Below are positions 17,023 through 53,662 of a stretch of 64,000 nucleotides of DNA, one piece after another. Source of the stretch: Blastocystis sp. Blastoise (lineage: Eukaryota; Protista; Bigyra: Opalinata); NCBI GenBank assembly GCA_039096225.1, contig JBBPEB010000007.1, forward strand, positions 1,240,001 through 1,304,000, in the 5' to 3' direction. A model generated the notes under the pieces. The model was given only the letters and a program-made list of their open reading frames with translations, made no database searches and was not told the origin of the DNA. The position numbers and the translations under genes were made by a program. Position 1 is the first letter of the stretch; every line of letters starts with the position of its first letter.

Positions 17023-17714
17023 ATTCTTCCGTTCTTCGAACTGCAGAAGGGGGTATGCAAACCCCGCATAGAGTCTGCGCGACGCGCGCAGCCATAAGCG
17101 GGGAAGTCATCCCCCCTTTTTGTTCTCGACGGAAGAATTAATAACATTTCTGAAGTAAAATAACCATGGGAGTGTAGGGTAGTGTGTGTGTATTTTTATT
17201 TTTCCCCATGTTTATTTATTTTTAATTTATTTGTGTTCCGATTCCAACGTGAAACGTAAAGTGATCAAGGAGAAACTCATAGTAATCATAAAAGAAATAA
17301 AATACACAGTCCAACCCTCCCCTTTACAGGGAATATTCATGGAAAATGACTCCATCGTTGGTAAAGTGAGTAAAATAATCACGGGAATACAGAAAGAAAT
17401 ACGAAAAGAAGCACAGAATGTGCTAAATAAACACACACCCCGACCCTCCCTTTATATAGAGAAAAGATGAAATGGATGGTTCTATCTAAAAAGAAATAAT
17501 AAGAATAATCACGGGAATATATAAAAATAAAAATGTATGTATAGTGATCAATAAATAATATAAAAAGTCATGATAATCATAAAAAAATTTATATAAAAAG
17601 AGTAAAGTGATCAAGGTATGTATTTATAGTGGGTGAAAGAAAAGCTGGTGGTGGTGTGGTCTTGTAAAAAGATGTACCCACCACCACGATTATAACGAGA
17701 GACTTTTGGAAACA
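17023..17714 (+). repeat. Left terminal inverted repeat of the viral element
   Basis: Reverse complement of 52973-53662 with only a few substitutions/indels; starts ATTCTTCCGTTCTTCGAACTGCAG. Confidence 0.95.
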
Positions 17715-17742
17715 TGAGCGACCGATATGGAAAAATATAAAT

Positions 17743-17782
17743 TTTCTAGAACATTCTAGAACATTCTCGAAACTTCTAGAAT
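17743..17782. promoter_or_regulatory. HSE array (8 pentamers)
   Basis: TTCtaGAAcaTTCtaGAAcaTTCtcGAAacTTCtaGAA, ~45 bp upstream of the ORF at 17827. Confidence 0.75.
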
Positions 17783-17826
17783 AATAAATTGTATTATTCT
17801 TTTTTTATATTTTTATACTATATATT

Positions 17827-17994
17827 ATGGATTCTCCAAAGCAATTTGCTCCAGATTATAAAGAAGGTACTTGGAAACCTTATGGAAATTTTGAAGTTGA
17901 TGAATTAAGTAATAGTGATTCTGATGTGGATACTATTCAAACTGAAAGTGAAGATGATTATGAAGATTATATAAAAAATTTTATTGATTTTTAA
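17827..17994 (+). CDS. Small acidic viral protein (55 aa), not in the ORF track
   Basis: MDSPKQFAPDYKEGTWKPYGNFEVDELSNSDSDVDTIQTESEDDYEDYIKNFIDF*; directly downstream of an HSE array. Confidence 0.6.
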   Translation: MDSPKQFAPDYKEGTWKPYGNFEVDELSNSDSDVDTIQTESEDDYEDYIKNFIDF

Positions 17995-18068
17995 ATTAAT
18001 TTTTATAAATAACAAAACAAATTGTTTAGTTTTTAAAAATAATAATAAATAAAACAAATTAAAATTAA

Positions 18069-19559
18069 CTAATGTTTTCTACGTTTATTTCTTAATTTTT
18101 TATTTTTTGAAATACGTCTTTTTCTACGTAATCCATTACCTTCTTCGAGATCATAAAATACCTCACCATCATCTTCATCAAATGATTGAAATTCATCATC
18201 TTCTTTTTTATTTCTTTTATTGTTATTTACAAGAGTGACATTTTCTACTGGATTAGGAATAGGGGCTACAGGTGTAATATTTGAAGTGAATTTATTCGTG
18301 ACTGCTTGAGACATTGGAACAGTATCAGGTAAAGGAACAGTAGGATCATTTATAAGAGGAATTAAATTTGGAGGATTTGAATCTTCAATAGTAATATTAT
18401 GAATATTTTCTTGTGTTAGAGTATCAGGAGTAGATGAAGAAGTTGGTATAACATTATTATTTGCTTCTATTGGATTTTCTGTTTGTGGTATTTCTTCATC
18501 TGGATTCTTACCATACCACCAATTTGAAAAACTATTAAACGCGTTCTTTGTACCGCTAATAACAGAGTTTGCAACATTCTTAACACCATTAACAATAGGT
18601 GTTCCTACATTTGTTGCAGTATTAACAACTTTATTAACAAATGTAGGGTTTTCTGCATATGGAATATAATTATTATGAAATGTTTTTGCTTGATCTTCTA
18701 AAGATTTACTTTTGTTAAGTCTTTGTTCTTTAGTATCATTGCCTGACATATGAGCAAATCTGAAATAGTTTTCAGCTAATATTTTATTTTTTTTCTTAGC
18801 TTCATTATCATCAGTTAATTTCCAATTATCATATAAATTATTTCTATCACTTACAAGTTTTCCTTTAATATCATTGAATCCTTCTTTTGGATCAACATTA
18901 ATATCTCTCCACCAATTCTTGAGATCTTTGAATTTATTTGCACCATAATCAACAGCATTACTTATTCCATGAGTGATGTTATTAATACCTCCAGTTAATT
19001 TATCAGACACATTGTATACATCACTTACAGTGTGATAAATATTAGAAAATAAATTACCACCTCTAGAATATAAGTAACCATCACGATCTCTTTTAGTAAA
19101 ATCAATAGCACTATCAATTGTACGAGGATTTAATAATCTAGAATATTTAGAATAATCAGACATATGATTTTGTTTCATATAAGGTAAGACATAATCATGA
19201 GCATAAATAAGTTTTCTTGTAAAGTTCTTTGGAATTCTACCATCAGGTAATAGCCCAGATCCTTCATCTATTGGTTCACTTTCTTCTGATTCTTCTAATG
19301 AATTTTGTATAACATCTTGTCTGGTTTCTGACAAATATGAATAGAATGGATTTGACGTTGCTCTATTAACCATATTACTTTCAATTTTTTTAACAGCATA
19401 TAATGAATTTGGAGCAATAGAATAATTAATTGGATGACGTTCTTCCCCATCAGGAATAGATCCTGGAACAATATAATTTCGATATTCATGACCAGTAGCA
19501 CGATGATTTACGCCTACTAATCCTTTATTTGAAACATTTAAACGAGCACTTTGTATCAT
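18069..19559 (-). CDS. Viral hypothetical protein (496 aa), possible virion core/membrane protein
   Basis: Intronless ORF; EGSGLL, RGGNL and EGNGL motifs; basic C-terminal tail after the last GxG; amphipathic ..NWW segments. Confidence 0.7.
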   Translation of the reverse strand: MIQSARLNVSNKGLVGVNHRATGHEYRNYIVPGSIPDGEERHPINYSIAPNSLYAVKKIESNMVNRATSNPFYSYLSETRQDVIQNSLEESEESEPIDEGSGLLPDGRIPKNFTRKLIYAHDYVLPYMKQNHMSDYSKYSRLLNPRTIDSAIDFTKRDRDGYLYSRGGNLFSNIYHTVSDVYNVSDKLTGGINNITHGISNAVDYGANKFKDLKNWWRDINVDPKEGFNDIKGKLVSDRNNLYDNWKLTDDNEAKKKNKILAENYFRFAHMSGNDTKEQRLNKSKSLEDQAKTFHNNYIPYAENPTFVNKVVNTATNVGTPIVNGVKNVANSVISGTKNAFNSFSNWWYGKNPDEEIPQTENPIEANNNVIPTSSSTPDTLTQENIHNITIEDSNPPNLIPLINDPTVPLPDTVPMSQAVTNKFTSNITPVAPIPNPVENVTLVNNNKRNKKEDDEFQSFDEDDGEVFYDLEEGNGLRRKRRISKNKKLRNKRRKH

Positions 19560-19683: not shown

Positions 19684-20862
19684 TTAAGTTTCATCGTTTT
19701 GCTGATTTCTTAATCCACTATGTTCTTTATCAGGAAGTGCCTTATTTTCATTAAATAAACCTTCATTATATTTGATAATGAATTCATCAAGTGGCATTGT
19801 TCCGTACGTTTTATATATATAGCCTGACTTTTCAGCTGATCTAACATAAATTTTTTCATCTTTAAGAATGAATACCTGATCTTTAAACTCTGGATTATTA
19901 CATATTACTTTTGAGTTCTTACCATTAACATAAATTGTGAATGGTATACCACTTTCAACAATATCATAATGCATACCTTGTTCATCCATCTTATCTTCAA
20001 ATGCTTTGGCATCTTTTTTACGGTTACTCTCATAATTATCCATCTTAGCGTTTGTTTTATTAGTATCATTTTGACGATTCTTTTCATATTTATCCATTCT
20101 AGATTGTGTATTGTTATAGTCTTGATGACGATTATTTTCATATTTATCCATCTTTGAATTTGTATTGTTAACATCTTTTTTACGATTATTTTCATATGTA
20201 TCCATTTTAGAGTTTGTAATATTATTATCTGATTGACGATTATTTTCATATGTATCCATCTTTGAGTTCAAATATTCGTTATCTTTATGTAGATTTTCAT
20301 AATTACCAGTCATATTTTGTTTCATTGAAGCTGCTTCAGCATGTATGTCATCATTATTGGTTTTAATTTGATATGAAATATTATTTAATTGATCATACAT
20401 ATCTTTTTGAGCATTTGAATAGAATTCATAATTCTCTTTATTCTGTTTATATGCTTCTGAATTCAATCCATTTAAGCCTTTTATTGAAGATAATAATGTT
20501 TCATATTGATAATTATTAGGATTACTAGCATCATACCATATCTTACTGGTAGTAGGTACACCATAATTCGTTTGCCATTGAGATAACATAGATGAGTATC
20601 TTGCAGTATCTCCATTAGCTTTAGCTGAATTCATAGTAGCTATAAACATATCTTCAGGTGATTGACCATGATTTCTTAATGCTTGAACTGCCATTGAGCT
20701 ATACATAGATCCTTGTGCATTAGGATCATGTGCTAATGGTTGTACAGGTTGTTCATCTTGACAAATATATGAATTGGGTAACCATGGATCCCAAGATTGT
20801 TTTTTCTGATTTCTTGATAAAATATCATAGAGAGTTACACTATCTCCTAAATTACTTTGCAT
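19684..20862 (-). CDS. Viral hypothetical protein (392 aa) with ~18-aa tandem repeats
   Basis: 5-6 copies of NSKMD(T/K)YENNRxxDxNxT. Confidence 0.75.
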   Translation of the reverse strand: MQSNLGDSVTLYDILSRNQKKQSWDPWLPNSYICQDEQPVQPLAHDPNAQGSMYSSMAVQALRNHGQSPEDMFIATMNSAKANGDTARYSSMLSQWQTNYGVPTTSKIWYDASNPNNYQYETLLSSIKGLNGLNSEAYKQNKENYEFYSNAQKDMYDQLNNISYQIKTNNDDIHAEAASMKQNMTGNYENLHKDNEYLNSKMDTYENNRQSDNNITNSKMDTYENNRKKDVNNTNSKMDKYENNRHQDYNNTQSRMDKYEKNRQNDTNKTNAKMDNYESNRKKDAKAFEDKMDEQGMHYDIVESGIPFTIYVNGKNSKVICNNPEFKDQVFILKDEKIYVRSAEKSGYIYKTYGTMPLDEFIIKYNEGLFNENKALPDKEHSGLRNQQNDET

Positions 20863-20938: not shown

Positions 20939-21976
20939 TTAATTTAAATGGAATTTTTTTAAGAAGAATTGAACAAGATTAATAATTAGATTAGTAGTAG
21001 TATCAAAGGATGTAGAGTTGACAAGAGCACCACCACAACGTTCAGCATTCTCTTTTGTAACACCACTTCCACTAGGATTTTTAAAGTAGTTATCAGCAGT
21101 TTCTTTACGTTTCTTATCATCATCGGTAGTAATCATATTATAAGCGAAATCAATAGGGATACCAAGAGAAGGATAATAGTATTTTAATGCATTCACTACA
21201 ATAGGAACAATCGTTTTAATAGTTTTAATAGCAGTATTCGCAATAATAGAATGCTTTTGTTTTGGATCCATAGGATATTCTTTATCGATAACGACATTAA
21301 CAATATCACGTACAGACACATGCTCATCATTTTTAGGTAATCGTTCTTTAATATCTTGTAATTTCTTCTTATTAGACTTTACATTACTAGAACGAATAGC
21401 CTTCTTAGCAATAATTTTTATTTGAGGAGTTACAAATTTACTTGTTTTCTTTTCTTTTTCTCGGTGACTCCCATGTTCTTTACGATGTTTCTGATGCCTT
21501 CTATGTATACCTTGACCAAATATATCATCATAATTTTCATCTTCAAGATTTGCATTATTATAATCTTTATCATCATCAGCCATCATTTTTCTTGTTATTC
21601 TCTTTGGTTGATAAGTATCATCATCGTTATATAATTCATCATCTCTATTAGCATCTTCAATATGTTCTTCAAATTGTCTTTTCTTTTCTTCTTTTGCTTT
21701 TTCTTGACGTTTTTGTTCTTTACGTTTCTGATAATAATTATATCCAGCAAATGCTCCTAATGTACCTAAAATAGGTAATGCAGTATAGACACCATTTTTA
21801 AAATCAGCCCAATCAGCATCTTTAGCTTGTTGTCTAACAATTTCTTCAAAACCAGTTCCTCCATATCTTACATAACGTTTATGATAAAGATCACGTCTAT
21901 TTGATTTTGGTGGTGATCCTCCAAATAATCGTGGATCACAATTTTGTTTTAAATATCTTTTTGTAATTGAACTCAT
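20939..21976 (-). CDS. Viral hypothetical protein (345 aa) with a hydrophobic segment and GxG motifs
   Basis: ALPILGTLGAFAGYNYY hydrophobic helix; YGGTGF, FGQGI, SGSGV and CGGAL motifs. Confidence 0.7.
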   Translation of the reverse strand: MSSITKRYLKQNCDPRLFGGSPPKSNRRDLYHKRYVRYGGTGFEEIVRQQAKDADWADFKNGVYTALPILGTLGAFAGYNYYQKRKEQKRQEKAKEEKKRQFEEHIEDANRDDELYNDDDTYQPKRITRKMMADDDKDYNNANLEDENYDDIFGQGIHRRHQKHRKEHGSHREKEKKTSKFVTPQIKIIAKKAIRSSNVKSNKKKLQDIKERLPKNDEHVSVRDIVNVVIDKEYPMDPKQKHSIIANTAIKTIKTIVPIVVNALKYYYPSLGIPIDFAYNMITTDDDKKRKETADNYFKNPSGSGVTKENAERCGGALVNSTSFDTTTNLIINLVQFFLKKFHLN

Positions 21977-22029: not shown

Positions 22030-23067
22030 TTAATGAAAAGAAGGATAACCAGAATAATGTTTTTTATTTAAATAAGGATTGAAAATGCGTCGTTGACTAT
22101 CTTGTATGATTTGATCTTGTATGATTTGTAAGATGGATTCTTTAGGTTTATCTTTTTCATCTCGTTCAATACCTTTCAATGAGACTTCTTCTTCAACAGG
22201 TAAAAACTTCTTCATTTTCTTTTCATATGTAGATACACGTTCATTAGGACGTTTAATACCACTACCTGATACTTCACCTTGTTCTTCTCGTTTCTCTTTT
22301 TCACTATCTTCTTCTGTCCATTTCCTTTTCTTTACCATCTTATATACATTCTGTTTACTACCACAATCAGGATTTGTCCATATTGTTAAATCATCACTAC
22401 CTTGTTTTAACATAAAGAATTGATGTGGATCATTCATTAATTCTTCATCTGTAAGAATTTCATTTAGATTCGATGGCATAATCTTTAATTTATCTGGTAA
22501 GAATCCAGGATCACGTTTTAAGATTTGACTATTAATAAAGAAATGAGATACTTGACTTAATATAGATTGATTGGTAACATCTGTATGACTTTGAAGACAT
22601 ATAATAGCATTCTGTTTATAATGACGACCTTTAGATAATATAGATACAATCAATTGTTTGGTTTGTCTAGATAATGGATAGATATCATCCAATACAATAA
22701 AATTATGTTCTGGTAATTTATATGTATTGACTAATTCATCAACAGTTTTAATCTTTTTAAATTTATCATCTACAGAATCATACCATTTATAATCAATTCC
22801 AGCATGTTCACAAATATCTTGAAAGGATGTATAACATTCATTCTTATTGGATGCATCAGGACAAATTACTGTGACTTGTTTATATTTATTTTTAAGATCC
22901 ATAGAACATAAGAGGTTCACAGTTAAGAAAGATTTTCCTGAGAATGTTCTTGCAATAATCAATATGAATTTTGATTCATATGTTTTATGATGGGATTTTC
23001 CATATTTAAATTCTAAGACTCCACATCCTTTACGTGTTTCTTTTAATGGATTTATTTTATTCACCAT
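22030..23067 (-). CDS. A32-like (FtsK-HerA) genome packaging ATPase
   Basis: Walker A ILIIARTFSGKS, Walker B FIVLDD, and the A32 signature LSKGRHYKQNAIICLQ. Confidence 0.9.
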   Translation of the reverse strand: MVNKINPLKETRKGCGVLEFKYGKSHHKTYESKFILIIARTFSGKSFLTVNLLCSMDLKNKYKQVTVICPDASNKNECYTSFQDICEHAGIDYKWYDSVDDKFKKIKTVDELVNTYKLPEHNFIVLDDIYPLSRQTKQLIVSILSKGRHYKQNAIICLQSHTDVTNQSILSQVSHFFINSQILKRDPGFLPDKLKIMPSNLNEILTDEELMNDPHQFFMLKQGSDDLTIWTNPDCGSKQNVYKMVKKRKWTEEDSEKEKREEQGEVSGSGIKRPNERVSTYEKKMKKFLPVEEEVSLKGIERDEKDKPKESILQIIQDQIIQDSQRRIFNPYLNKKHYSGYPSFH

Positions 23068-23135
23068 TTTATATGATTTTAATCAACAAAACAAAAAATA
23101 ATTAATGATAAGTTAAAGATAAATAAATGATTTTA

Positions 23136-23807
23136 TTAAGATGCAGTAAAGTATATATAAAGATTTGTATTTGATAAATCAATTGGATTATTTAATTGAT
23201 CATATATTTCCCATTGGATATCTGTATATTTACCATCAATACATGGAATAGATAAATCACTGAGAGCAAATGTATTATCAAATCCTTGTTTAGCATATAA
23301 AGGAATAGAAATTAAATCATTATCTTTATTAATAATATCACAATACACACGTAACATATAGATCTTATACCATGAAATATTATTGGATATATATTCATCA
23401 GTAAATACGATTGTATCACCCGGTGAAAAGTATGATGATTTAATGCCTAAGTATTTAAATAGTCCAGAACTAAGACCACATTCAAACCAATGATTTGATT
23501 TAAAAGTTTTAGTTTCTTTATTATAGCTGAAACCATAAGGTTCTCCTTCAACATAGGATTTCATTTTTTTTCCAATTTCATATAATTGATCTAAAAAATC
23601 TTCTAAAGTATAATTTCCAGCTGGAAATGTATATCTACCAGCATTATCAAAAAACTGAATATTGAATTCAGGAATATTAATGATATCACTTGTATTCACT
23701 AATGTATTGATATGAGTTATATTTTTACCTACTAAATCCAAAGTATAATTGAATTGCTCATGACAGATTTGACTTGTAATTTTACTTAGATGAGATATTG
23801 ATGTCAT
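23136..23807 (-). CDS. Minor capsid (penton)-like protein
   Basis: Polinton/PLV penton-like motifs TFPAGNYTLEDF, LFKYLGI, LRVYCDII and IQWEIYDQLNNPIDL; lies between the ATPase and MCP. Confidence 0.7.
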   Translation of the reverse strand: MTSISHLSKITSQICHEQFNYTLDLVGKNITHINTLVNTSDIINIPEFNIQFFDNAGRYTFPAGNYTLEDFLDQLYEIGKKMKSYVEGEPYGFSYNKETKTFKSNHWFECGLSSGLFKYLGIKSSYFSPGDTIVFTDEYISNNISWYKIYMLRVYCDIINKDNDLISIPLYAKQGFDNTFALSDLSIPCIDGKYTDIQWEIYDQLNNPIDLSNTNLYIYFTAS

Positions 23808-23903
23808 TTTTATTAAATAAATTAATTATGAAATTATAAACAAAACAATATTTTTAAGATTAATATAAAGTTGATACAAATAAGAAAATATTATATAATT
23901 AAA

Positions 23904-25127
23904 TTAATTGGTTGCACCATCTCTAACAAATTTAACAAATATAAAATGAGCATATAAAGTATAAGTACCACTAGTAATATTTGCACCATTATATTCAGTT
24001 AATAAGGAGATATTAACTTCACAACCACTACGAGTATTGACATCAACAACACTTGAAATAGGGAATATATAAATAGGTTGTTCATACCATTTCTCACCAT
24101 TCAAAGGAGATTGAGGATGACTATTACATCTCCAAGTATTATAAAGCATAGCATTAGGAATAATTTGTGATGGATTCGTTGTTTTATATGTAGTAGGGAA
24201 ATCCGTCTTTGGTAAGATATTTTGACCACCAATTTGGAATTGACACATCTTCAATAATTCAGTCTTAATAGGAATCATACTCTTCTCTTGAGTTGTAAAA
24301 TATAACATACAGTAATCAGGTACGAAAACAACACTTCTATTGGATAAGAATTGTTGTGGAGTTGGTTTACCTGCTGTTGTGAATGTTTGTGAATAAACAG
24401 GTGTAGTAAATGCAGATATTTGACAATTATTAGGAATACATTTAATCAAAGCACGTGGATCATTACCAAAATTAATATCATAGATTTGTTGAAGATGAAT
24501 ATAAACACGATCAAATGTTAATGCAGTGATTTTAGTGGTTCCAGTAAATAGATTCTTTAAATAATTTGTAACGAATTGCATCTTCAAAGATTTTACTTTA
24601 ATAGCACAATCAAATGTACCAAGACCAGTAATAAGAGATAAAGGAATAATAACTTGAGCTTTAGTAGAACTTTGCATTCCAGAAATACTGCTTAATGTTG
24701 TATTATATAAGCATTCAGTCATACTATACATAGATTTATCAATTTCATCTTTACTTAATTCTTTAATAGTAACAAATTTTCTTGCTTTACTGGATTCAAT
24801 AGAAGATTCAGAATAATTAATAAGAATATCTTGACCCGTAGGAGATACAAACGTAAGATCTGTAGTAATTTTATCAATAATACTATAGATATTAGAATGT
24901 TGTACAACAGAACTAGTTGTAGCTGCATTTGTTGTAATATTGAAATTCAGTTCTAAGAATGAATTACTGAAATCAATAAAAGGACTATCCACTGAATTAT
25001 ATAAGAATTCAAATGGATAAGGTTGATTTAATAAATCTTGACTTGTAGAAACTAGAATAGGAATTTGTACAGGTTTAATAGTTTGATTTGCCTTTGAAGG
25101 TAAGAATTGTCTTGGGAATCCTTCCAT
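23904..25127 (-). CDS. Major capsid protein-like (double jelly-roll), paralog 1
   Basis: 407 aa, beta-rich; FEF..FIDFSNSFLELNFNI, NIYSIIDKI and IIPLSLITGL resemble the Polinton/PLV MCP N-terminal pattern. Confidence 0.75.
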   Translation of the reverse strand: MEGFPRQFLPSKANQTIKPVQIPILVSTSQDLLNQPYPFEFLYNSVDSPFIDFSNSFLELNFNITTNAATTSSVVQHSNIYSIIDKITTDLTFVSPTGQDILINYSESSIESSKARKFVTIKELSKDEIDKSMYSMTECLYNTTLSSISGMQSSTKAQVIIPLSLITGLGTFDCAIKVKSLKMQFVTNYLKNLFTGTTKITALTFDRVYIHLQQIYDINFGNDPRALIKCIPNNCQISAFTTPVYSQTFTTAGKPTPQQFLSNRSVVFVPDYCMLYFTTQEKSMIPIKTELLKMCQFQIGGQNILPKTDFPTTYKTTNPSQIIPNAMLYNTWRCNSHPQSPLNGEKWYEQPIYIFPISSVVDVNTRSGCEVNISLLTEYNGANITSGTYTLYAHFIFVKFVRDGATN

Positions 25128-25303
25128 TTTAATAATTATTGTTTATGTATTTTTTTAACAAAAATAAAAATAAAATAATAATAATATTTTATAATTATTA
25201 ATTAATTTAAATTTTTATAACAAAACAAATGATTGGAATATAGAATAGAATAGAATTAATTAAACAAGTTAACGTTAAGAATAGTAAGTAAGAAATATTA
25301 AAT

Positions 25304-26776
25304 TTAAATATCACGTACACTACGTACAGCAATCATATGTAATGTATAAGGATGCTTCTCATTTAGTTCAGTATTAATATGTTTATAAATACCAGCATGA
25401 GAAGCAACGGCATAAGAAGCACCAGTGTCAGGTGTCCATATTTTAGTAGTTTCATTATATGTACATGTATATCCATCAGGAACAGTAGATGAATCAGCAT
25501 GACCATATTCAATATCATGGACATCTAGATTACAATCAAAATTCATTTCTATACCACTATCTGATTGGATATTCATTAATGCTTTAGTTGGAATAATATA
25601 AATAGGATGTTTAATCCATTCATCATATTTAAGAATAGTTTCAGGATTTGAATTATCAGCCCATAAACAATATAGATTTTTATTAGGACAAGATAAACTA
25701 GCAGTTTCTTCATTATTGAAGACATGACCTTTAGTAGTAAGATTATGATAATACATTTGAGTAGGGAATTCAGTTTGAGGGAACATTTGAACATCACCAA
25801 TCAAACAACTTTGATATTTAGGCCATACAGATGGACTAGCTACATTACTAATAGTTGTTGAACTATAACCATTTGTAAACCAGTATAATATATATTCAGG
25901 TATAAATGGTAAAGCTCTATTGATATTGAAATGATCACTAGTTATTCTTGTATTTTGATAATCGACTTGAATACATGTAGGTATAGTTTTATATAATTCA
26001 TTCGTTTGGAATTGAATATCTTTATAAGTCATTAAATTCATAGTAGCTGATTCCAATTCAAATGTCTTAAACCATTTTTCATCAGTTAGATGTAACCATT
26101 GTGTTGATAATTTAGCACCACCATTCTTGAAATAAATACTCATATTATTATCAATTAAGGATTCAATTGTACTCGTTCTAAATAGCATATTGAAATGTTT
26201 AGTTAATATTAAAGAATCTCCATCAACACCTAAACCACTAATGAGATATAAAGGAATAGCAATATGAATAGATTGTTTTGGATGTGCACGTATATAACGA
26301 ATAGAATTCAATTCATAAGTATCTGCAGATAAATCTTCACCATACATAGATTTTTCTAAATCATTCTTACTGATATCTTTTAATAAAATCATCTTACGAC
26401 CACGTGAAGCATGTGTACAGTTTTCTTCATATTTCAAAGCACGATCAGATCCATCAGGTAAAGTATAAACCATTTCAACATCAGTGGAATCAATAATAGA
26501 ATAAATATTAGCTTTCTGAACTAATTGATCCAAGAAATATTGACATAATTGATCATAGGTGAAACTAACAGAAGTACCTGTTTCATCTAAATAAACAGAA
26601 ACTGGTCCAGCTTTATCTGTTACAGTTGCCTTGACAGTAAGATCCAAATATGATTGATTGAAATTGATATAAGTATTATCCACATTAGTCCAATGATATT
26701 GAAAGATATAAGGACTTGATAGAATATCAGTATCACTTTGAATAGGAATATTATCTTTAATTCTTAAGATTCTCAT
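25304..26776 (-). CDS. Major capsid protein-like, paralog 2
   Basis: Collinear similarity to 23904-25127: YINFNQSYLDL, NIYSIID, DLEKSMY, IPLYLISGLG, FIPEY, FPQTEFPT, PIYIIP, YTLH. Confidence 0.7.
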   Translation of the reverse strand: MRILRIKDNIPIQSDTDILSSPYIFQYHWTNVDNTYINFNQSYLDLTVKATVTDKAGPVSVYLDETGTSVSFTYDQLCQYFLDQLVQKANIYSIIDSTDVEMVYTLPDGSDRALKYEENCTHASRGRKMILLKDISKNDLEKSMYGEDLSADTYELNSIRYIRAHPKQSIHIAIPLYLISGLGVDGDSLILTKHFNMLFRTSTIESLIDNNMSIYFKNGGAKLSTQWLHLTDEKWFKTFELESATMNLMTYKDIQFQTNELYKTIPTCIQVDYQNTRITSDHFNINRALPFIPEYILYWFTNGYSSTTISNVASPSVWPKYQSCLIGDVQMFPQTEFPTQMYYHNLTTKGHVFNNEETASLSCPNKNLYCLWADNSNPETILKYDEWIKHPIYIIPTKALMNIQSDSGIEMNFDCNLDVHDIEYGHADSSTVPDGYTCTYNETTKIWTPDTGASYAVASHAGIYKHINTELNEKHPYTLHMIAVRSVRDI

Positions 26777-26851
26777 TTTTTTTTTAAATAAAAAAATATT
26801 AATAAATAAAATAAAATTAATATAAATTATTATTTAATAAATTAGAAAAAT

Positions 26852-29290: not shown

Positions 29291-29358
29291 ATATTTTAAT
29301 TCATTTCATTTAAATTAAAAATGTTTTGTTATATTATTCATTTAAAAATTATTAAAAA

Positions 29359-29781
29359 ATGGAGCCTAAATCTGTATCTGAATCCTTACATTCTTTATCA
29401 AGTACAAGTTCAACAAGTTCAGATAGTTCAACAACAACCACATTATCCGAAGAAGAAATAGAAAAGAAAAATACTTTATTAGAATTTATTATAAAAGCTA
29501 TAAAATGTTTATTTGAGAAATCAACTGAATTCTTTCAATTAATTGTTAAAAATATAGATATTCATTGTAATTGTTGTAATCCACAAACAAAGAAAGTCTA
29601 TTATAAGACAATGAAAATACAACAAACTATTATAGAAGAAGAAGTCAAACATATATCAGAAGTCTTGAATGAATTAGAAGAAATTGATTCTAATCAAAAT
29701 GAATCAATACAAGAATTAGCTGTTCAATTAATGAAATTAAATATAAGTGTTGATTCTATTGTTCAATCTCTTCATTTATAA
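29359..29781 (+). CDS. Viral hypothetical protein (140 aa)
   Basis: ATG-initiated ORF; S/T-rich N-terminus, HCNCC motif, coiled-coil C-terminus; followed by the TTGTTTTGTT motif. Confidence 0.7.
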   Translation: MEPKSVSESLHSLSSTSSTSSDSSTTTTLSEEEIEKKNTLLEFIIKAIKCLFEKSTEFFQLIVKNIDIHCNCCNPQTKKVYYKTMKIQQTIIEEEVKHISEVLNELEEIDSNQNESIQELAVQLMKLNISVDSIVQSLHL

Positions 29782-29848
29782 TTCTATGAAATGTTATAAA
29801 ATATTAATAATAAATTTGTTTTGTTTATAAATAATTTAATTTTTAATA

Positions 29849-31645: not shown

Positions 31646-31690
31646 TTTTAAAACAAAACAACTTTTTATAATAAAAAAATAAATATATAT

Positions 31691-43867: not shown

Positions 43868-43920
43868 TATAATCCTATTCAACACCAAAAAACTACAAGT
43901 AATGCAAATGGTTGCTTTTA

Positions 43921-46900
43921 TTAATATCCTTAATTTAGTTCATGTAGCGTACGGTGTCTCACAGACTTTCACTATTCTTGACTTTGTTATTAACTTTTAT
44001 AAAATAAAAATAACATCATAAAATCCGGAACACAATTCTGAAAATGACTGTTAAAGAAATTTTTCAAAAACTCTAAATTTCTGGCTAAAAATCGCAAAAA
44101 ACCATTTTCGCACAAAATTTTAACCAAAATTATTGGATTATTTTTATTTTATCCAATATTTTTCATTTTTATAAAAACACTTATTTTTCCATTTTCATTT
44201 TTTATTGTTTTCTTATTTTTCCTATATCACTTCACATACTCTATATTTATTTTTATAAAATTGACTTTTATTGACGGGTTAGTCTTATAAATAGTTTTGA
44301 CGGGTAAATTTGTTTATATTTACAACTTGACAACATATCAATACACACATCACTAACTATAAACTCTAAAATGGTTTCAGTTGTTATGATACTGACCTCA
44401 ACTACTCTGAAACCACAATAATTCCTTTAAATAACAACAAAAGTCAAACTGATATCCGACACATTCCTTCTTTATAAATTTATTTGAGCTTTAATGTATT
44501 TATTTAACTCTGTATCCGTCATAAATATGTTTTATATTTTAATAATATGTTTTAATAAGAAAATATTTGATAATAGAAATTTTGATGTTTTGATAGTATA
44601 GTTTGTTATTCGTCTTTCTCCTTGAGTTTTGGGTATTTTTTAAAAATAAAAGTATAATTATAATTAAGATAAGCTATTGCAGATACATATTTTTTATTTT
44701 ATCTAAATATTTAATATTGACTGAGAAACATTCATTTATATGAAAAACATAAAAATGAAAATTTTCAAAAAAGGGTATAGTTTGTTATTGTGATTTCTCA
44801 ATCAATTCTTAATAAAATAAAAAAGTTAGAACATATTTAGAAACTAGACATGTCATAGCAGATACATATTTTTCATTTTTTTAATTAATTGAAAACTCAG
44901 GTGACAAGAGTCAATAGTTGAACTCAATAAAAAATGACTTTCAAAAAATTTTCTTAAAAAGTTTTCATTTGTTTTTTGTTTATATTTTCATCATTAACAA
45001 TTTTATTTGACATTAGACTTTATATTTAAAAACTATATATCAAAATAAACATATTTTATAATTTTATTTTGTTTTTAAAAGACTGTGACAACAGATCACC
45101 AGACAATGTTAACTCAATAAACTCTTAAAACGTTTTAATTAGTGTTTAGAATCATTCATGGACACTGAATATGATTTATTTGAAAAAGTTAGGACAACAT
45201 GTTGAACTGATACAGACAATGTTTGTTCTAAAAAGTAAGTTATCAGTCTTACTAAGTTGTAAATATCATAAATATGCTTTAAATAAATAAATATGCTTTT
45301 AATTATCTTTAATTAGTGAAATAAGTCGTTTAAAAAGAAGAAAGCATTTTGGATACTATAGTTTATTTTGACAATTTCTCCATCAATATTAATTTTTAAA
45401 AAATAAATAAAACTTATATATAAACTAGACAACCTATAGTTTATATATTTATAAAAATACTAGGGTCACGCCGCAGGTCCGGGGCCTAACGGCACCGGAC
45501 CGCGGCTGCATAAAATAATAACAGTTTGGCTTTTATTTTCTTTTTTTCATTATTATATATTATCTATTATATATTATTATTTATTATCTATTATATATTA
45601 TATATTATATATTATATAATATATAATATATTATATATTATATATTATATATTATATATTATATATTATATATTATATATTATATATTATATATTATATA
45701 TTACTTTAATAACACTTCTTATACTCTATATGGAGAGTTACAATCATTTATTGATTGTAATCAGGTTCAATTCCTGATATAAGAATTAAATAAATTCTTT
45801 AAATGATATCAAAAAAACTAAAAACAATACTTGAAAGAAAATTAAAAAACTATTTTGAATCATTATACATATTATTTATTATTTTTAAAATATATTTTGT
45901 ATTTATTAATAATTAAACAACTGTTTTAAACATTTTGTGAGTTTTTAAAGTCAATAACTTTAGAAATGAGTCACAATGTGAAGAACTCTGAAGTATTTTT
46001 AATTCATAAAAGTTATTTAAATAAACGTAATATAATGATTTAAACTCATTTTCATACTTTTTAAAAGAATTAGAAAGCTTTAATCATAACAAAGTCAGCA
46101 TTCATTCTAACTTTGACTAATAAAACATGGTTTAAAAAGTTAATATTTCTTCAGTTGTCTCAAATACTTATTTTAATCATAAATGACTCGAAAAAGTGAC
46201 TTTTAAATAGACTTTACCCATTCAAGATCCACTGTATCAAAACAGTTTCCGTCAGTCTTTTGATATAGTATAGAGTTTATCATACTATTTATTAAATAAA
46301 AGTAAATGTTTTGAATCTCTTTCTTAAAGACCCTTTTTGACACATTATGAAAAGTTGACACACTTAAATTCATTTTTATAAGCTAATATTTACACACTAT
46401 ACTTAATAATACCATAGCTACACATTGGTCATCACTTTAAGACATTTCGTAAACCTTTTGCATTTGCTCATTTACTTTGACCAAAATATTTTCGTCCCTC
46501 CTTTTGATATAATATAGACTGTGTGGTCTAGTTATATGAAAGTGAGATGGAATTTTGAATCTCGTCCTCTAAGTCAAACATTTTCACATTTTTAAAAATT
46601 AAGACCCTTAGAGTTGATTTTTGAAGTTAATTTTTCTACAGTGTTCCAAAAACACGATTTTGCACAAACTGAAGTAAAAATATTTTTTCAATAACTCTCA
46701 CAACCCTTTACACATGCAGTCTCTAAAAATAGATTTTGCTATATTTTTGATATGTTGTAGAGTGTCTCTTAGTGTATACTGAACAATATCTCGTTTCTTA
46801 AAACTCTCATTTTATGACTCTCTTTAAACATATTTTTACTAATTGAAAGACTTAAACACATTTTTAAAAGCTAATATTCACATAGTAGACTTTATATGAC

Positions 46901-49900
46901 TCTATAATCACATTAGTCAACACTTTAGACTTATTAAGAAGACTTTACCATTTGGTCATACACTTCGACCAAAATATTTTTGTCCCTCCTTTTAACATAA
47001 TATAGATCATACACTCTAGTTTAATGAATAAAAGCTCTTATTTTGAATCTCGTCCTCTAAGTCACTCATTTTTACATTTTTTTAAATTTAAGACCCTTAG
47101 AGTTGACTTTTTGACTCAATTTTTCTACAGTGCACGAAATTCACGATTTTATATAAACTGAAGTAAAAATAAATTTTAAATAATAGTCACAACCCTTCAC
47201 ACATCCACTCTCTAAAAATTATTTTCTTTGTACTTTTGATATGTTGTAGAGCTACTACAGCTGTACACTAATTAATATCTCTAAATTTTTTATTCAAAGT
47301 CTAAGACTATGTTTTACACATTCTTTGAAATTTGACAACCTTAAACTATTTATTTAAAGCTCTTATTCATAGAATATACTTAATATATGATTCGAAACAC
47401 ATATATAAACCCTTTTACTTTTTAAGACACATTTTGTCATTTGGTCATACACTTTGACCTTCATAATTTTGACTCTTCTTTTGACATAGAATAGAGTATT
47501 ATCTTTAGTTTACTAAATAAAAGTCATTATATTGAATCTCTCACTCTAAGACCACTTAATTCACATTTTTCAAAATTGTGACACTCAAACTCATTATTTT
47601 AAAACTTTGTTTTAACTATAGTAGTTTGAGGACCTATTGATTACTATGATACAATATTAGTCCATTATAAGAAGATCGAAGAAAAATATCGATCACTCAA
47701 AAATCGTCCTCAGGAGCTCAAAATTGGCACACCTAGGTTTTTTGACCTCCTGAATCAGAATATCATGTCAAAATAAGAATCTAAATTTGACCGTTAAGGC
47801 CTCACGTGTTCAATATGAAAAAGTATTAAAAAATAGATAAATATAAAGAATAAACACGGATAACGTATATTGTGGGATTGAGAAAAAATCAAGTTTACCC
47901 CATGTTTATTTTTCAATTGTCTGGTCAACAATTTTTATCGGGATGATCCCAAAGAGCCAATCAAAAACGACTCAAAAATCATGTTTTCTGTTCTTTTATT
48001 AATAACTTTTTAAATATAAATAATATCGCTTAACCAAATATATGGTGCACAACTACATGTTATATCCTATTGAACTGTGTTTCAACGAAAAGTTAACTCC
48101 CCGTAAGTTTAGAGGAGTTGTGGGTACAAACTTGAGTATATAGTAGCCAATCAAATGAATTTTCCAAAAACTGACCAATGGGAATTTTTTTGCCTATTCT
48201 CATATATATAGTAATGATTATCAAAATATTAAATAACTTTTGAGATAAAAAATTATATATGCAAAACATAAAAAAATTAATTTTTGAAAAAAGGGTATAC
48301 TTTATAACATTAATTTCTCAGTCAATATTTAATTATTTAATATAATTTTAGCAAATAAATATAGAGAATAACACATATTAATAATATAAATTTTAACATT
48401 TAAAATTAATTAAGAAATGAGTTCAGTAGAGTCAATAGTATAACATGTTAAAAAACTGAAAATTGAAAAATCATTTTTCTAAAAATTTTCCGAAAGTTGA
48501 CAAATCAAATTCATATTTGACAATTAATTTTTACATATTTGAAAACTAGACATTATATGTATTGCATTTCTCAAAAAATTAGTCAAAAATAAGTTAGACG
48601 AGTGTATGAGTATATGCACATGTTGACTCATAATTTTGAAAAAAGTAGTTAAATATGTCCTAAACCACATATCAAAGCAATTCTATAAATATTATCACTT
48701 TATAATGAGTTTAAAGGATAAAATAATTTTGAATTGTCTGTTTGACTGTCTTAAGTGAAGAGATTCAATACACTTTTTATAAAAATGAGTATTAGAGTGT
48801 TTAATGTTTATAATAATAAAAGAATTGTTTGAAATAAAGGTGGTTGTGTGTTTGACCAAAATGTTAAAATGAGTCTATTTTTCTAAAATGGTTACAATAA
48901 GTATATATTGAGTGTTTTTAGAGTATTTTATATTAAAATCTACAATAAATAAACATTTTAAGTTGTTCAAAAAATTATTTTTTTAGAATTACAATAGTTA
49001 AGTCAAGAGATTCAAGTCACTTTTTATAATAATAATAAATAGACTTATTATAGAATATAAAATATTAAAAATTAGTTTAATTAAACATGGTTGACTGTTT
49101 GATAGGAGTGTTAAAATGGGTAAAAAGATTTTAATTGTTTCTAAAACTGTATAATACGTTTTTATGTCACTAAATACAAAATTATTATTGTTTAAAGAAT
49201 GTTTTTTGTCTTTCAAAAGAACTCATTCTTTGTAATTGTGACTTAAAACAAAAGAGATTCAAGTTATTTTTTACAAATTAAAATAATAAATTAAATATAT
49301 ATGTATATTAATATAAAATTCGTTTTAATAAAAGTGGATATGTGTATTTAAAAACGTTAAAATCTTTTAGAGTTTTTTAAAAATAACTTATTTGTTTTAT
49401 AAACTATATTTTATGTATAATAGGTAAAGTTTCCAAAGTATTTAAATCTATTTAGTTATGAAATGGAATGTAATTTTTGGTTTATATTTAGTTTTTCGTT
49501 TCATTTAATGAAATGATTTTGATAACACTATAAAAATTGAATTAAACTTGAATTAATTAATTTTAAATAATGAAAAGATAATTTCTCTATAAATATTCTC
49601 TTTTACTTAAAACGAATAGATTCTATTAATGATAAATATTAAAATAAGACTCTAATTTTTTTGTTTATTATATAAAGTAATAAATATCTTTTAATTATTA
49701 AGAGTACTTTTGTATTAATAATTCAAACTAAAATAAGTATAATAAAAGAAAAATTATAATATTTATCAAATAATATCAAGATATGATTACTATTTATATA
49801 ATTAAACATTTATTAATTGAGAAAAGCTGTATAATAAAATTTCTAAAATATTTATATAATAGTATATATAAAAGGAAAGGATAAAATATAAAAAAACAAA

Positions 49901-50900
49901 TAGATATCAAAATTATAATATTTTAAAAATAAAACAAAACAATATATGAAAAGAATAAAAAAGAATATATAATATTTTTTTAGACAAGAGAATAAGCTAT
50001 TTCTCACAATAATAATTATATAGACTAATTCAAATAAAACATAAATATTTAAAGGTAGGGTATAAGTGATAATAATATGTTTTAAAAGAAAAAGTATTTT
50101 ATAATCATATTGATATTATTTAAAATACTAAATATTTATAAAACTAAATGAATTGATAAAATACATAGAAAGTTATAAATGAAATAACAAAGAAAAGTGA
50201 ATTAATATTGAAAACTAAAAACTAAATAGAAATAGAAATAGAAATAGAAATAGAAATAGAAATAGAAATAGAAATAGAAATAGAAATAGAAATAGAAATA
50301 GAAATAGAAATAGAAATAGAAATAGAAATAGAAATAGAAATAGAAATAGAAATAGAAATAGAAATAGAAATAGAAATAGAAATAGAAATAGAAATAGAAA
50401 TAGAAATAGAAATAGAAATAGAAATAGAAATAGAAATAGAAATAGAAATAGAAATAGAAATAGAAATAGAAATAGAAATAGAAATATGAATAAGATCAAA
50501 ACTAAAACACAAGAGCTAATCAATTATCATTAATAAACAATAAATATATATAATCAATAATAAAAATAGCTAAAATAATACTAAATAAAAAAGGAAATAA
50601 TACTCAAAAAATGTAATATAAAATGTTAAATAGGAATTATGAATAAATTGTGAATTAAATTATTTAGAATATACTAAACTAATAACTAAACAATAGAAGA
50701 TAACAACTAAAACAATTGAAATAATAATTTATAAAATATGAAATAGTCTTCATCCTAAAAATAAAAAAATAGAAATGAATAACAAAAACATAAAAATAAA
50801 CATAATATTTAAAAAAAAATCAACATAAAATATAATAATTAAGAGATGACAACTATCAAAACTCAAGCGTAGGCTGGCGTAGCCAGTCGTGAAACGCTTG
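43921..50900 (+). mobile_element. Non-autonomous Helitron-like element, family A, copy 3 (contains a nested Helitron)
   Basis: Reverse complement of 39645-43867 (one homopolymer indel noticed) apart from the 45460-48217 insertion; A|T target. Confidence 0.8.
45460..48217 (-). mobile_element. Canonical non-autonomous Helitron (family B, 2758 bp)
   Basis: Minus strand begins TC (TCATTACTATATATATG) and ends CTAG; GC-rich subterminal hairpin CCGCaGGTCCGG..CCGGACCGCGG at 45471-45505; the empty site in the other palindrome arm (42328/42329) shows A|T insertion with no TSD. Confidence 0.92.
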
Positions 50901-51035
50901 TTATTCTTTACTTTATTTACTTTCTAATGGAAATCTTATGCCTTGTTAAAACATTCTAGAATATTCTAGAATCTTTAATTTATTATATTAATATTTTGTA
51001 TAATTAATTTGTTTTGTTTATTATTTAATACTATA

Positions 51036-51191
51036 ATGACAAAGAAACGATTTGGCAATTACTACTTAGATCGTAGTGCAGAAATTTTAGAGAATGTAAA
51101 TGAAATACTGTCAGTTATTGAAATTGTTCTTATTATTATATATATTTTACTTTACTTTTATATGTCCAAGAAACGTTCTAGAACATTCTAG
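51036..51191 (+). CDS. Small viral membrane protein candidate (51 aa)
   Basis: MTKKRFG.. with hydrophobic ILSVIEIVLIIIYILLYFY; 4-unit HSE upstream (50953-50972) and TTGTTTTGTT downstream. Confidence 0.45.
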   Translation: MTKKRFGNYYLDRSAEILENVNEILSVIEIVLIIIYILLYFYMSKKRSRTF

Positions 51192-51293
51192 AACATTCAT
51201 TTTGAACTGGCTCTATTTGTAGAATCTTTAATTTATTATATTAGTATTTTATATAATTAATTTGTTTTGTTTAATCATTGGTTAATTTAAATA

Positions 51294-51668
51294 ATGAACA
51301 AGAAATATCTTAGTTATTCTTATTTTTGTCGTGTGATGAAGAATCTAAAAGAAGAAGGAATTAAATCCAAAAAGAATGAAATAGCAAATCTATTAGAACA
51401 ATTTTTAAATAATAATAACAACAAGAATCTTAGTGATTTGCAATTGAGTTACTGTAGAAACATGTTACTTTATATAGATGATCCTGTGATTCATCAACGT
51501 CTTGAAATGCTATTGGATAAACAATATATGAAGAATGAGAATCAATATCAAGATGATAAGAATCTTATTCAACCCAATAATATGTTTATGCCAACTATGA
51601 AAAGTAATCAACAACAAAATCAATATCAAAATAATAATAATAATCTATCTTTCTTACCTTTTAATTAA
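51294..51668 (+). CDS. Viral hypothetical protein (124 aa)
   Basis: ATG ORF with N/Q-rich tail; 5-unit HSE at 51175-51199 upstream. Confidence 0.6.
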   Translation: MNKKYLSYSYFCRVMKNLKEEGIKSKKNEIANLLEQFLNNNNNKNLSDLQLSYCRNMLLYIDDPVIHQRLEMLLDKQYMKNENQYQDDKNLIQPNNMFMPTMKSNQQQNQYQNNNNNLSFLPFN

Positions 51669-51734
51669 TTTTTATATCCTTTTATTACTAGTTGTTTAGT
51701 TATTAAAATTATTAAACAAAACAAATATTAAAAA

Positions 51735-52670
51735 TTATTCAATTAATTTTTTAAATAAATTATTATTTTCTAAAGATACATAAGAATTAATATGTGTATA
51801 ATCATTATGACATAAAGCAGAAGCAGAATTTTCTATATCTTGGAATGTATTGGTTGTAGTTGTAGCATATAATTTTCTTAATGCATTAATGGTTAATTTT
51901 GGATGGATTTGTTTTAAATGCTTATTCACAAACCAATCAAATGCTTTAGTAGTAAATCCAGTTCTTACAGAAGATTCAAATATAAATTTACGATTTGGAT
52001 TTCTTTTTAAGAGTAATTCTAGATCTTCAATCAATTCTTTTGGTGCATCTAATTGAATTGTAGAGTATTTACCAGCAGTTTTATAATCATTCAATAGAAT
52101 AGAACCAGTGTGTTTCTCTTTATCATAAACAATATAATTCTTATGAATAACTGGATCAATAGTATCTTCTGGAGTTAGAATGAATAATTGAGCATAATCA
52201 GCACGAGCAGGAGGAAGATAGGAGTAAAAATCTAATATTAATCGTAATGGATTATAATTTTCTAATTTATCGTGATATTCATGTAAATATGGAGTCGTAA
52301 TACCATCTTTAATAAGATCTTGAATCAAAGTACGTTTCTTATTATCCAGATATTTTTCATACATTGAATTGATAATCACATAAAATTCACACCATTTATT
52401 TAAAATACCTTCTTTATTTAATGAAGAAACATTACGTATAATAAATAATATCAATTCACATAACGATTTCATTGGACTAATTTTGATTTTACGTTCATTT
52501 ACCATATAATCCATGAATGAATAAGGATTCTTTAAGAATTCTGAGAACTTTTTAAATGGTAATGGGAAAATATATAAATTGAAATAATTGGTTAAACGTT
52601 TTTTCCAAATATCAGAATAATTTGAATTCTGTATAACCAAAAGATACTTGTCATAATTTGTATTTTTCAT
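51735..52670 (-). CDS. Tyrosine recombinase 2 (PLV/virophage type)
   Basis: YSYLPPARADY (R), LNDYKTAGKY (K), TINALRKLYAT, ALCHNDYTHINSY (H..Y); first ATG at 52670. Confidence 0.85.
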   Translation of the reverse strand: MKNTNYDKYLLVIQNSNYSDIWKKRLTNYFNLYIFPLPFKKFSEFLKNPYSFMDYMVNERKIKISPMKSLCELILFIIRNVSSLNKEGILNKWCEFYVIINSMYEKYLDNKKRTLIQDLIKDGITTPYLHEYHDKLENYNPLRLILDFYSYLPPARADYAQLFILTPEDTIDPVIHKNYIVYDKEKHTGSILLNDYKTAGKYSTIQLDAPKELIEDLELLLKRNPNRKFIFESSVRTGFTTKAFDWFVNKHLKQIHPKLTINALRKLYATTTTNTFQDIENSASALCHNDYTHINSYVSLENNNLFKKLIE

Positions 52671-52757
52671 TGATTTTCTCAAGTAGAATCTCTAAAACTT
52701 CTATTTTCAAAAGAATAATACATAAGAAAATCAAAATAAAATATCTAAGATTCTCAT

Positions 52758-52807
52758 GTTCTCGAATGTTCTAGAAGTTTCGAGAATGTTCTAGAATATT
52801 CTAGAAA
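52758..52807. promoter_or_regulatory. HSE array (10 pentamers) upstream of recombinase 2
   Basis: TTCtcGAAtgTTCtaGAAgtTTCgaGAAtgTTCtaGAAtaTTCtaGAA. Confidence 0.8.
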
Positions 52808-52972
52808 ATTGATATACATGCCGCCACATAAAACCACTGGAACACAATTAGTTTCCCCAGTTTCCCTATTATAATTGTGTTTTTGTGTTCCAAAATCCCT
52901 CATTTTTACAATTTTAAGCAATTTGATTGGACAATTCACGATGACGCATCCTATTTCCATAACGGTTACCCT

Positions 52973-53662
52973 TGTTTCCAAAAGTCTCTCGTTATAATCG
53001 TGGTGGTGGGTACATCTTTTTACAAGACCACACCACCACCAGCTTTTCTTTCACCCACTATAAATACATACCTTGATCACTTTACTCTTTTTATATAAAT
53101 TTTTTTATGATTATCATGACTTTTTATATTATTTATTGATCACTATACATACATTTTTATTTTTATATATTCCCGTGATTATTTTTATTATTTCTTTTTA
53201 GATAGAACCATCCATTTCATCTTTTCTCTATATAAAGGGAGGGTCGGGGTGTGTGTTTATTTAGCACATTCTGTGCTTCTTTTCGTATTTCTTTCTGTAT
53301 TCCCGTGATTATTTTACTCACTTTACCAACGATGGAGTCATTTTCCATGAATATTCCCTGTAAAGGGGAGGGTTGGACTGTGTATTTTATTTCTTTTATG
53401 ATTACTATGAGTTTCTCCTTGATCACTTTACGTTTCACGTTGGAATCGGAACACAAATAAATTAAAAATAAATAAACATGGGAAAAATAAATACACACAC
53501 ACACTACCCTACACTCCCATGGTTATTTTACTTCAGAAATGTTATTAATTCTTCCGTCGAGAACAAAAAGGGGGATGTCTTCCCCGCTTATGGCTGCGCG
53601 CGTCGCGCAGACTCTATGCGGGGTTTGCATACCCCCTTCTGCAGTTCGAAGAACGGAAGAAT
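52973..53662 (-). repeat. Right terminal inverted repeat of the viral element
   Basis: Reverse complement of 17023-17714. Confidence 0.95.

Follow-up and report, generated by a model that had tools for sequence, protein, structure and literature searches.

The closest described systems to the one reported here are Polinton-like viruses (PLVs) that combine a tyrosine recombinase (YR) with an AEP or D5 primase and a superfamily 3 (SF3) helicase, as in Tetraselmis TsV-S2x and the cryptophyte cluster C1 (PMC10120064, PMC12220804, bioRxiv 10.1101/2025.10.09.676808). The 64,000-nt stretch of Blastocystis sp. Blastoise DNA that we analysed (the window) contains, at positions 17023-53662, an element that is almost certainly an endogenous PLV. 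It resembles these viruses in size (they span 15-30 kb), in its terminal inverted repeats (TIRs), double jelly-roll (DJR) major capsid protein (MCP), packaging ATPase, primase-helicase and YR, in lacking a target-site duplication (TSD) and in being multicopy in a protist genome. It differs from them in an MCP with no sequence-detectable link to theirs and in having two MCPs, two YRs, arrays resembling heat-shock elements (HSEs), terminal hairpins and an anaerobic gut host. Its unusual features are the restriction of the HSE arrays to non-structural genes, the hairpins and the different wiring of the two YRs.

The sequence-only reading of this DNA had instead regarded the lack of pPolB and of an RVE integrase as unusual. 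Neither was found among the open reading frames (ORFs) of the element by ORF and Pfam/PHROG family searches, nor in the insertion that it carries, but a YR with an AEP-SF3 protein is the standard PLV kit in published gene sets. Primase-helicases and YRs are standard alternatives in PLVs (PMC10120064), YR is strongly associated with AEP/PolA (bioRxiv 10.64898/2026.10.13.758929), and the Tetraselmis S2x PLVs have a D5 helicase-primase beside a YR (bioRxiv 10.1101/2025.10.09.676808). The interest of the element lies in its apparent stress-induction circuit and its host. A giant virus can wake endogenous PLVs; the present sequence names another candidate trigger, and the host can be cultured. A 2026 review considers it unresolved whether Blastocystis hosts viruses, with none confirmed, and mentions reported 30-nm particles accompanied by dsRNA (PMC12835684), which are probably different from this element. 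If the proposal made below is true, it describes a eukaryotic counterpart of prophage induction. In that case DNA viruses that stress can induce reside in one of the very common protist genera of the gut, missed so far by the capsid profiles in use and by IMG/VR.

Heat-shock-type arrays upstream of non-structural genes

In eight arrays of the element, each of 4-10 units, GAA and TTC alternate perfectly with a spacing of 5 nt; the expected number of such arrays is 0.01 (100 dinucleotide shuffles, with a maximum of one array). The spacer dinucleotides vary while GAA/TTC is fixed, and the arrays fit the heat-shock element consensus nTTCnnGAAn (PMC3907296), with at least three nGAAn units upstream of genes. 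They are located 45-158 nt before the ATGs of the primase-helicase (two arrays), of YR2 and of the 197-, 207-, 124-, 55- and 51-aa ORFs. An array lies within 260 nt upstream of 7 of the 20 element ORFs and of none of the other 13, including both MCPs, the ATPase and YR1.

The leftmost array (17744-17781, 8 units) ends 45 nt before an acidic 55-aa ORF (17827-17994, plus strand), a candidate early protein. A pair of 8 and 10 units (34780-34899) precedes the primase-helicase gene (31691-34693, minus strand), at distances of 86 and 158 nt from its ATG. Four units at 35745-35762 lie between two divergent ORFs with no assigned function, one of 207 aa (35010-35633, minus strand, 111 nt away) and one of 175 aa (36032-36559, plus strand), which shares the array at a distance of 270 nt. 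The 10-unit array at 36759-36806 precedes the 197-aa ORF (36883-37476, plus strand) by 76 nt. Near the right end, 4 units (50954-50971) precede a 51-aa ORF with one hydrophobic segment (51036-51191, plus strand), 5 units (51176-51198) precede by 95 nt a 124-aa ORF with no assigned function (51294-51668, plus strand), and 10 units (52759-52806) precede the YR2 gene (51735-52670, minus strand) by 88 nt. The segments 50954-51035 and 51176-51293 are near-duplicate blocks of HSE, AT-rich sequence and the 9-mer described below, and a similar block is found before the primase-helicase gene.

The host sequence in the window provides an internal control. Its flanks, 22.7 kb in all, have a single perfect array of at least three units, a 3-unit HSE located 155 nt before a host HSP20 gene (region 1505-2320, gene 1673-2320, plus strand; Pfam HSP20, E=3.8e-26), and no perfect array is present in the 11.3-kb insertion or in the transposons nearby (4.6 kb). 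Among 2.9 million IMG/VR contigs, one stretch has a triple TTCTAGAA array; this lies at positions 3001-3028 of a contig (L002) from a giant-virus metagenome-assembled genome, at the start of a 960-aa ORF, and is unrelated to the element. Our literature search, which missed most subscription papers, found no relevant paper on heat shock elements in virophages or Polintons. The nearest parallel is ONSEN/Copia78, a mobile element activated through nTTCnnGAAn elements and the host heat-shock factor (HSF) (PMC3907296), as proposed here. ONSEN is an LTR retrotransposon whose induction has been tested. In the Blastocystis element, a DNA virus that encodes its own capsid, induction is predicted and would start from several HSE promoters that lie apart from one another.

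We consider with good confidence that the arrays are functional HSEs. Since they precede the genes for the primase-helicase, the SSB-like protein and YR2, the host HSF likely switches the element on under stress.

Capsid and other putative structural genes

MCP1 (407 aa; 23904-25127, minus strand) was modelled with AF2 from a 105-row alignment (pLDDT 86.2, pTM 0.85) instead of the single sequence, which gave a pLDDT of 32. In a wide structural search (VIA) the 16 best-ranked entries were double-jelly-roll capsid or scaffold proteins, with the PBCV-1 capsid chain at Z 19.6 (rmsd 5.2, 320 aligned), faustovirus at 18.8 and Sputnik at 17.9; the next unrelated fold scored Z 7.1. In Foldseek searches the best BFVD match by far was an uncharacterised "MELD virus sp." protein, A0A8S5L5M3 (420 aa, TM 0.72, E=1e-18, 15% identity), and the top PDB match was Sputnik (TM 0.52, 11% identity). 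Viral clusters also came up, at 0.97, when features were searched in the Atlas, and in one of these clusters 10% of the members have the DJR-like PF21738. MCP2 (490 aa; 25304-26776, minus strand) is a paralog of MCP1 (28% over 418 aa, E=1e-39) that forms its own clade with metagenomic orthologs. Pfam gave no match for either protein.

Near the MCP genes lies the gene for a P-loop ATPase (22030-23067, minus strand), likely a packaging ATPase of the A32/FtsK type. Its family matches are weak but fitting (Pfam FtsK, E=0.058; PHROG terminase, E=1.4e-10), and Walker A and B motifs can be read from the sequence together with GRH..Q, which we take to be an A32-type signature. The sequence-only reading had described a morphogenetic module of an ATPase, two MCP-like and two penton-like proteins and a protease, and had staked its assignment on the 407- and 490-aa proteins being double jelly-rolls. 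AF2 and the structural search gave this fold for the former, and the latter is MCP-like by its paralogy to MCP1. The two MCPs and the ATPase of the module therefore stand; Pfam, PHROG, NCBIfam and PDB sequence searches returned nothing for the penton and protease candidates, nor for the SSB and 812-aa ones.

The penton-like label of the 223-aa protein (23136-23807, minus strand), which has no family match, comes from a motif and is unverified. This short motif, presumably penton-like, is shared with the 812-aa protein (26852-29290, plus strand), where it occurs three times; the latter is likely a vertex or spike protein. The 392-aa ORF (19684-20862, minus strand) has 18-aa repeats and likely encodes a fibre or tape-like protein. 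Three further proteins are likely core precursors: a 496-aa protein with a basic C-terminus and two GxG[ILV] sites (18069-19559, minus strand), for which a virion core is suggested, a basic 345-aa protein with two such sites (20939-21976, minus strand) and a basic, proline-rich 542-aa protein with five (37552-39180, plus strand). No function was assigned to a 140-aa ORF (29359-29781, plus strand). The cysteine-protease candidate (39213-39642, plus strand) is so labelled, without verification, from a GHF...YSSxG pattern that we take as a signature of such enzymes. It is cut by the 11.3-kb insertion, contrary to the claim that all ORFs are intact, and the window copy would thus need a sister copy. 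Its family is uncertain because the Q..CG motif is missing from all three frames behind the insertion.

The motif GxG[ILV] occurs 13 times in the HSE-less proteins, against 1.7 expected. All but one of these sites are in the 496-, 345- and 542-aa proteins, the ATPase and the tail of YR1, where the motif is kept in 114 of 119 homologs, mostly near-copies. We read these sites as putative maturation-protease cleavage sites; if so, YR1 would be a virion protein.

Replication and recombination genes

The primase-helicase (1000 aa) has the order AEP primase, PriCT2 and SF3 helicase. The motifs WFDxD and GxHxxT, which we take to be those of AEP, and the SF3 Walker motifs are present in all seven aligned sequences, and P4-primase and PriCT_2 profiles support the assignment. 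YR1 (598 aa; 29849-31645, plus strand) has no HSE and ends in GxG[IL] and a basic tail. Its R, K, R and H-Y motifs are found in 118-119 of the 119 homologs checked, and the Atlas feature search gave YR clusters at 0.95-0.96; it is likely a virion-carried integrase. YR2 (311 aa) matches Pfam Phage_integrase at E=0.084 and aligns with YR1 across the catalytic motifs (27% over 269 columns, E=2.7e-5), and would likely serve in excision or resolution. The alignments of the MCP, the primase and the YR found no match when searched against PDB sequences. In the accessible parts of the PLV literature compared, no element with two YRs was described. Of the replication module described before, the AEP-PriCT2-SF3 protein and both recombinases were thus supported, and the SSB label of the 197-aa protein has no family or PDB match behind it.

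Termini and target site

Self-BLAST aligned the TIRs (17023-17733 and 52954-53662) at 98.5% over 711 nt, with nine mismatches and two gaps. Five of the nine mismatches fall in the innermost 20 nt, and the outer core of about 690 nt differs by four substitutions and two indels. Once the insertion at 39643-50902 is subtracted, the element measures 25,380 bp, 82% of it coding, in agreement with the near-identical TIRs and size of about 25.4 kb first noted. Its GC content is 26.8%, against 24-26% in the host flanks. It lies on a 1.43-Mb contig with host genes on both sides, HSP20 and PPR genes on the left and intron-rich genes on the right. No TSD was found at its ends, the best agreement in a 6-bp comparison being 4 of 6 nt; this is as expected for YR PLVs, YR elements without TSDs having been described (PMC12220804).

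Each TIR has at its outer end a GC-rich imperfect palindrome of 117 nt that folds into one long hairpin (left, 17023-17139, 55% GC; right, 53547-53662). The left hairpin has z -5.7 on the plus and -7.2 on the minus strand, with none of 200 shuffles as good, and the right one z -6.1, so that the range is -5.7 to -7.2. The two strongest folds among 658 scanned windows are those over the two termini. An Rfam search gave no match, and our literature search found no PLVs with hairpins and a protelomerase. At the right flank, 53663-53671 matches the internal continuation of the hairpin stem in 8 of 9 nt (0.14% of host 9-mers do), an observation made post hoc at one of the two ends. It is possible that this match is a recombinase core-site similarity or a leftover stem.

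Copies, relatives and lineage

Two rounds of look-ups in a protein collection found 9 of 10 and 6 of 10 query proteins there. The named members of the clusters of element proteins, and of the host HSP20 cluster, are all hypothetical proteins of "Blastocystis sp. Blastoise" (YR1, 21 members; primase-helicase, 19). A copy-number search, proposed along with the sequence-only reading, found about 20 further copies in Blastocystis sp. Locus tags, taken from up to 15 members per cluster, define at least 20 blocks of the same gene order besides the window copy, one only partly visible and some possibly haplotigs. The genome thus carries about 21 copies, which fill roughly half a megabase (about 21 x 25 kb). 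Gene by gene, the other copies have median identities of 94.7-99.5% to that of the window. Copies overall are 94-99.8% identical with mostly full-length ORFs, though some carry truncated ones, and this agrees with the recent integration claimed earlier: the element is endogenous, multicopy and recently active. The 812- and 392-aa genes probably vary between copies, because they have only four members each at 90% clustering, with other copies mostly outside, despite a one-gene gap in the locus tags at the 812-aa position of other copies.

Several copies are apparently adjacent, in tandem or inverted (tags WA158_003900-003932, 007607-007636, 003338-003368 and 003480-003515), and a sister family adjoins one copy (003468/003472), which suggests integration hot spots. 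The same genome contains at least three more divergent families of the virus (P0169, P0171, P0172, P0258, P0363), among them three MCP1 families of 48-50% identity.

Searches gave 87 matches for MCP1, seven for the primase-helicase and 163 for YR1, and those listed come from this genome or from ENA, Logan and NCBI contigs. The homologs on metagenome contigs, several of 23-27.5 kb, are 39-63% identical. Contigs of 23048 and 23573 nt recur among the MCP1 and YR1 matches, a hint that both genes are on the same metagenome contigs. No DNA of these relatives turned up in IMG/VR, JGI metagenomes, GTDB or phage records, the one JGI locus obtained being bacterial and spurious. When 1.84 billion representatives were searched with a profile, 11 proteins matched, namely the MCP1/MCP2 family and one 403-aa outlier. 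This distant MCP homolog (P0268; 21% identity, E=2.4e-4) may bridge to the MELD-virus protein A0A8S5L5M3. In a quick MCP tree of 32 selected rows out of about 250, the window family groups with metagenomic sequences, and this group excludes the three remaining Blastocystis families. The metagenomic relatives may infect Blastocystis too. With homologs only in this genome and on metagenome contigs, the lineage appears undescribed, in line with the divergent endogenous protist virus proposed at the outset.

Its placement among PLVs follows an operational definition comprising a DJR MCP, an A32-like ATPase, a penton, a size of 15-45 kb, TIRs and an integration gene (bioRxiv 10.64898/2026.06.19.733378); the DJR MCP, the packaging ATPase, 25.4 kb, TIRs and two YRs were found, as the sequence-only reading had it. 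Named PLV clusters such as Gossevirus are recognised by an MCP match to the cluster HMM and by ATPase phylogeny, and the element is assigned here to none of them. Other placements fit less well. A Maverick-Polinton (Polintoviricetes group 1) does not fit an element with no pPolB, no RVE and no 6-bp TSD. The Blastocystis hominis MELD virus, from the same host genus, has an adintovirus-like PolB and integrase, both missing here, and virion proteins that are unrecognisably divergent (PMC8502044); the accessible supplement of that paper gave no match to the element. A0A8S5L5M3, although the best structural match of MCP1, is only 15% identical and is not established as a protein of that virus. Trimcap PLVs have several MCP paralogs, in some cases two pentons, and stramenopiles among their hosts (bioRxiv 10.64898/2026.06.19.733378). 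They require three MCP genes; the element has two paralogs and no sequence link to them was found, although a divergent third could be among the unfolded ORFs.

Virophages such as Sputnik and mavirus have a DJR MCP in common with the element; their class, Maveriviricetes, is recognised by an MCP, ATPase and protease of virophage type that the ICTV HMMs detect (PMC9952930). Their MCP is shorter, the fold scores of MCP1 tie with capsids of nucleocytoplasmic large DNA viruses, and the element has host-type signals where those of virophages are of giant-virus type. Sputnik also carries a YR and a primase-helicase (in part from PMC12220804). In the accessible parts of the literature, Blastocystis is not mentioned in the PLV framework preprint (bioRxiv 10.64898/2026.06.19.733378), appears in the PMC10120064 supplement only in 10 rows of Table S1, and PMC10690189 uses "endogenous" 0 times and "viral" and "virus" once each.

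A recurrent 9-mer after stop codons

The 9-mer TGTTTTGTT occurs 20 times in the window, against 1.85 expected. The element has 16 sites, all intergenic, and 14 of them lie on the sense strand 12-85 nt past a listed stop. It equals TGTTTGTT, the Blastocystis polyadenylation motif (PMC4159000), plus one T, and would set 3' ends as a host-like signal. A near variant is found about 90 nt past the stop of the host HSP20 gene. A role as late promoter was ranked below the 3'-end role because the gap between the divergent MCP2 and 812-aa genes does not contain the 9-mer, and because five genes that it follows (5 of the 14 post-stop sites) have no ATG after it. The host signal may have this variant, so far unnoticed, in a clade for which the absence of the TGTTTGTT of human-associated Blastocystis has been reported.

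Proposed cycle and alternatives

We lean, with some reservation, towards a nuclear provirus whose early genes are induced by the host HSF and which is then excised by YR2, copied by the primase-helicase and packed by the HSE-less block into virions that carry YR1. Stress would activate the host HSF, and the genes with an HSE would be transcribed in the nucleus by host RNA polymerase II, their 3' ends being formed by the host-like TGTTTTGTT. YR2 would then free the genome at the hairpin-ended TIRs, and the primase-helicase and the SSB-like protein would copy it through its own AEP or host polymerases, probably beginning at the terminal hairpins. The HSE-less block would supply the ATPase, capsids of MCP1 and MCP2, proteins of the vertices and core proteins matured by the protease. 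YR1, sharing the putative cleavage motif of the core proteins, would ride in the virion and integrate the genome without a TSD. Whether stress alone would give excision and virions is, in our judgement, evenly balanced. The division of labour between the two YRs and a role of the hairpins as replication origin are each somewhat doubtful. The fullest version would be an undescribed, helper-independent family of Blastocystis gut DNA viruses, widespread in metagenomes and with prophage-like induction: HSF would fire an early regulon consisting of the primase-helicase, the SSB and the recombinase for excision, one YR would resolve the hairpin ends from which the genome replicates, and a second, packaged YR would re-integrate it. 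As a whole we regard it as conceivable rather than probable.

Several points weigh against this account. Heat induction, excision and virions are predictions from DNA sequence. The HSE arrays were read in the window copy, one of about 21, and the host HSF is presumed, the literature search having found no paper on a Blastocystis HSF gene. HSEs act bidirectionally and the arrays at 50954 and 51176 have a 9-mer between array and ATG, so that their assignment to genes is less clean. The downstream motif was not enriched in tortoise-clade isolates (PMC10690189), and the 9-mer may therefore not be a host signal. The GxG[ILV] motif was picked after the sequences had been seen, most of the YR1 homologs being near-copies, and the protease, penton and SSB labels are unverified. 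In addition, the Tetraselmis S2x PLVs, which have the same D5 and YR kit, depend on a giant virus for reactivation (bioRxiv 10.1101/2025.10.09.676808).

This last precedent would suit a dependence of the element on a giant virus, which we consider unlikely. Its ORFs include neither a recognisable DNA polymerase nor a recognisable late transcription factor, and its capsid genes, having no HSE, would need another driver. However, its signals are of host-nuclear types (HSE, DGE-like 9-mer), the AEP may itself act as a polymerase (bioRxiv 10.64898/2026.10.13.758929), and no gene flux is reported between gut egoviruses and Blastocystis (bioRxiv 10.1101/2024.03.23.586382).

It is less likely still that the TTC..GAA arrays are sites for a protein of the element itself, such as iterons, recombinase arm sites or autoregulatory operators, and resemble HSEs by chance. 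Palindromic repeats with a 10-bp period suit dimeric DNA-binding proteins, two arrays are found at 10-150 nt inwards of the TIRs, and those at 34780 and 34852 make up a larger palindrome between them; against this stand the exact nGAAn phase with free spacers, the consistent position 45-158 nt before ATGs and the same element before host HSP20. A virion-less transposon whose capsid genes are intact merely through a recent burst is very improbable, since capsid and YR genes are conserved at 43-63% across four families of this genome and many metagenome contigs and since, from copy to copy, the putative surface proteins differ more than the enzymes do, even though there are some 20 near-identical copies, several adjacent by locus tag, an interrupted protease candidate in the window and truncated ORFs elsewhere.

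Other features of the window

Contigs from one sequencing run (RNA by guess, DNA possible) cover 24 of 30 bins of 22030-34693, patchily and at low depth, and were not counted as expression of the provirus; two other runs gave no coverage there. The host HSP20 protein has a cysteine-rich, metallothionein-like stretch before its alpha-crystallin domain.

The insertion at 39643-50902 is a nested transposon of 11,260 bp with no coding ORF, 2.7-kb TIRs (99.8% identical) and a 4-bp direct repeat at the junction. Inside it are a 489-bp tandem repeat and, at 42326-45462, a palindrome of 3.1 kb that is nearly perfect. In the window, this family was not found to have an ORF for a transposase. Relatives occur at 12497-15733, and together they form a large foldback-type family with multi-kb TIRs, a GC-rich terminal palindrome and a (TATTTC)n microsatellite.

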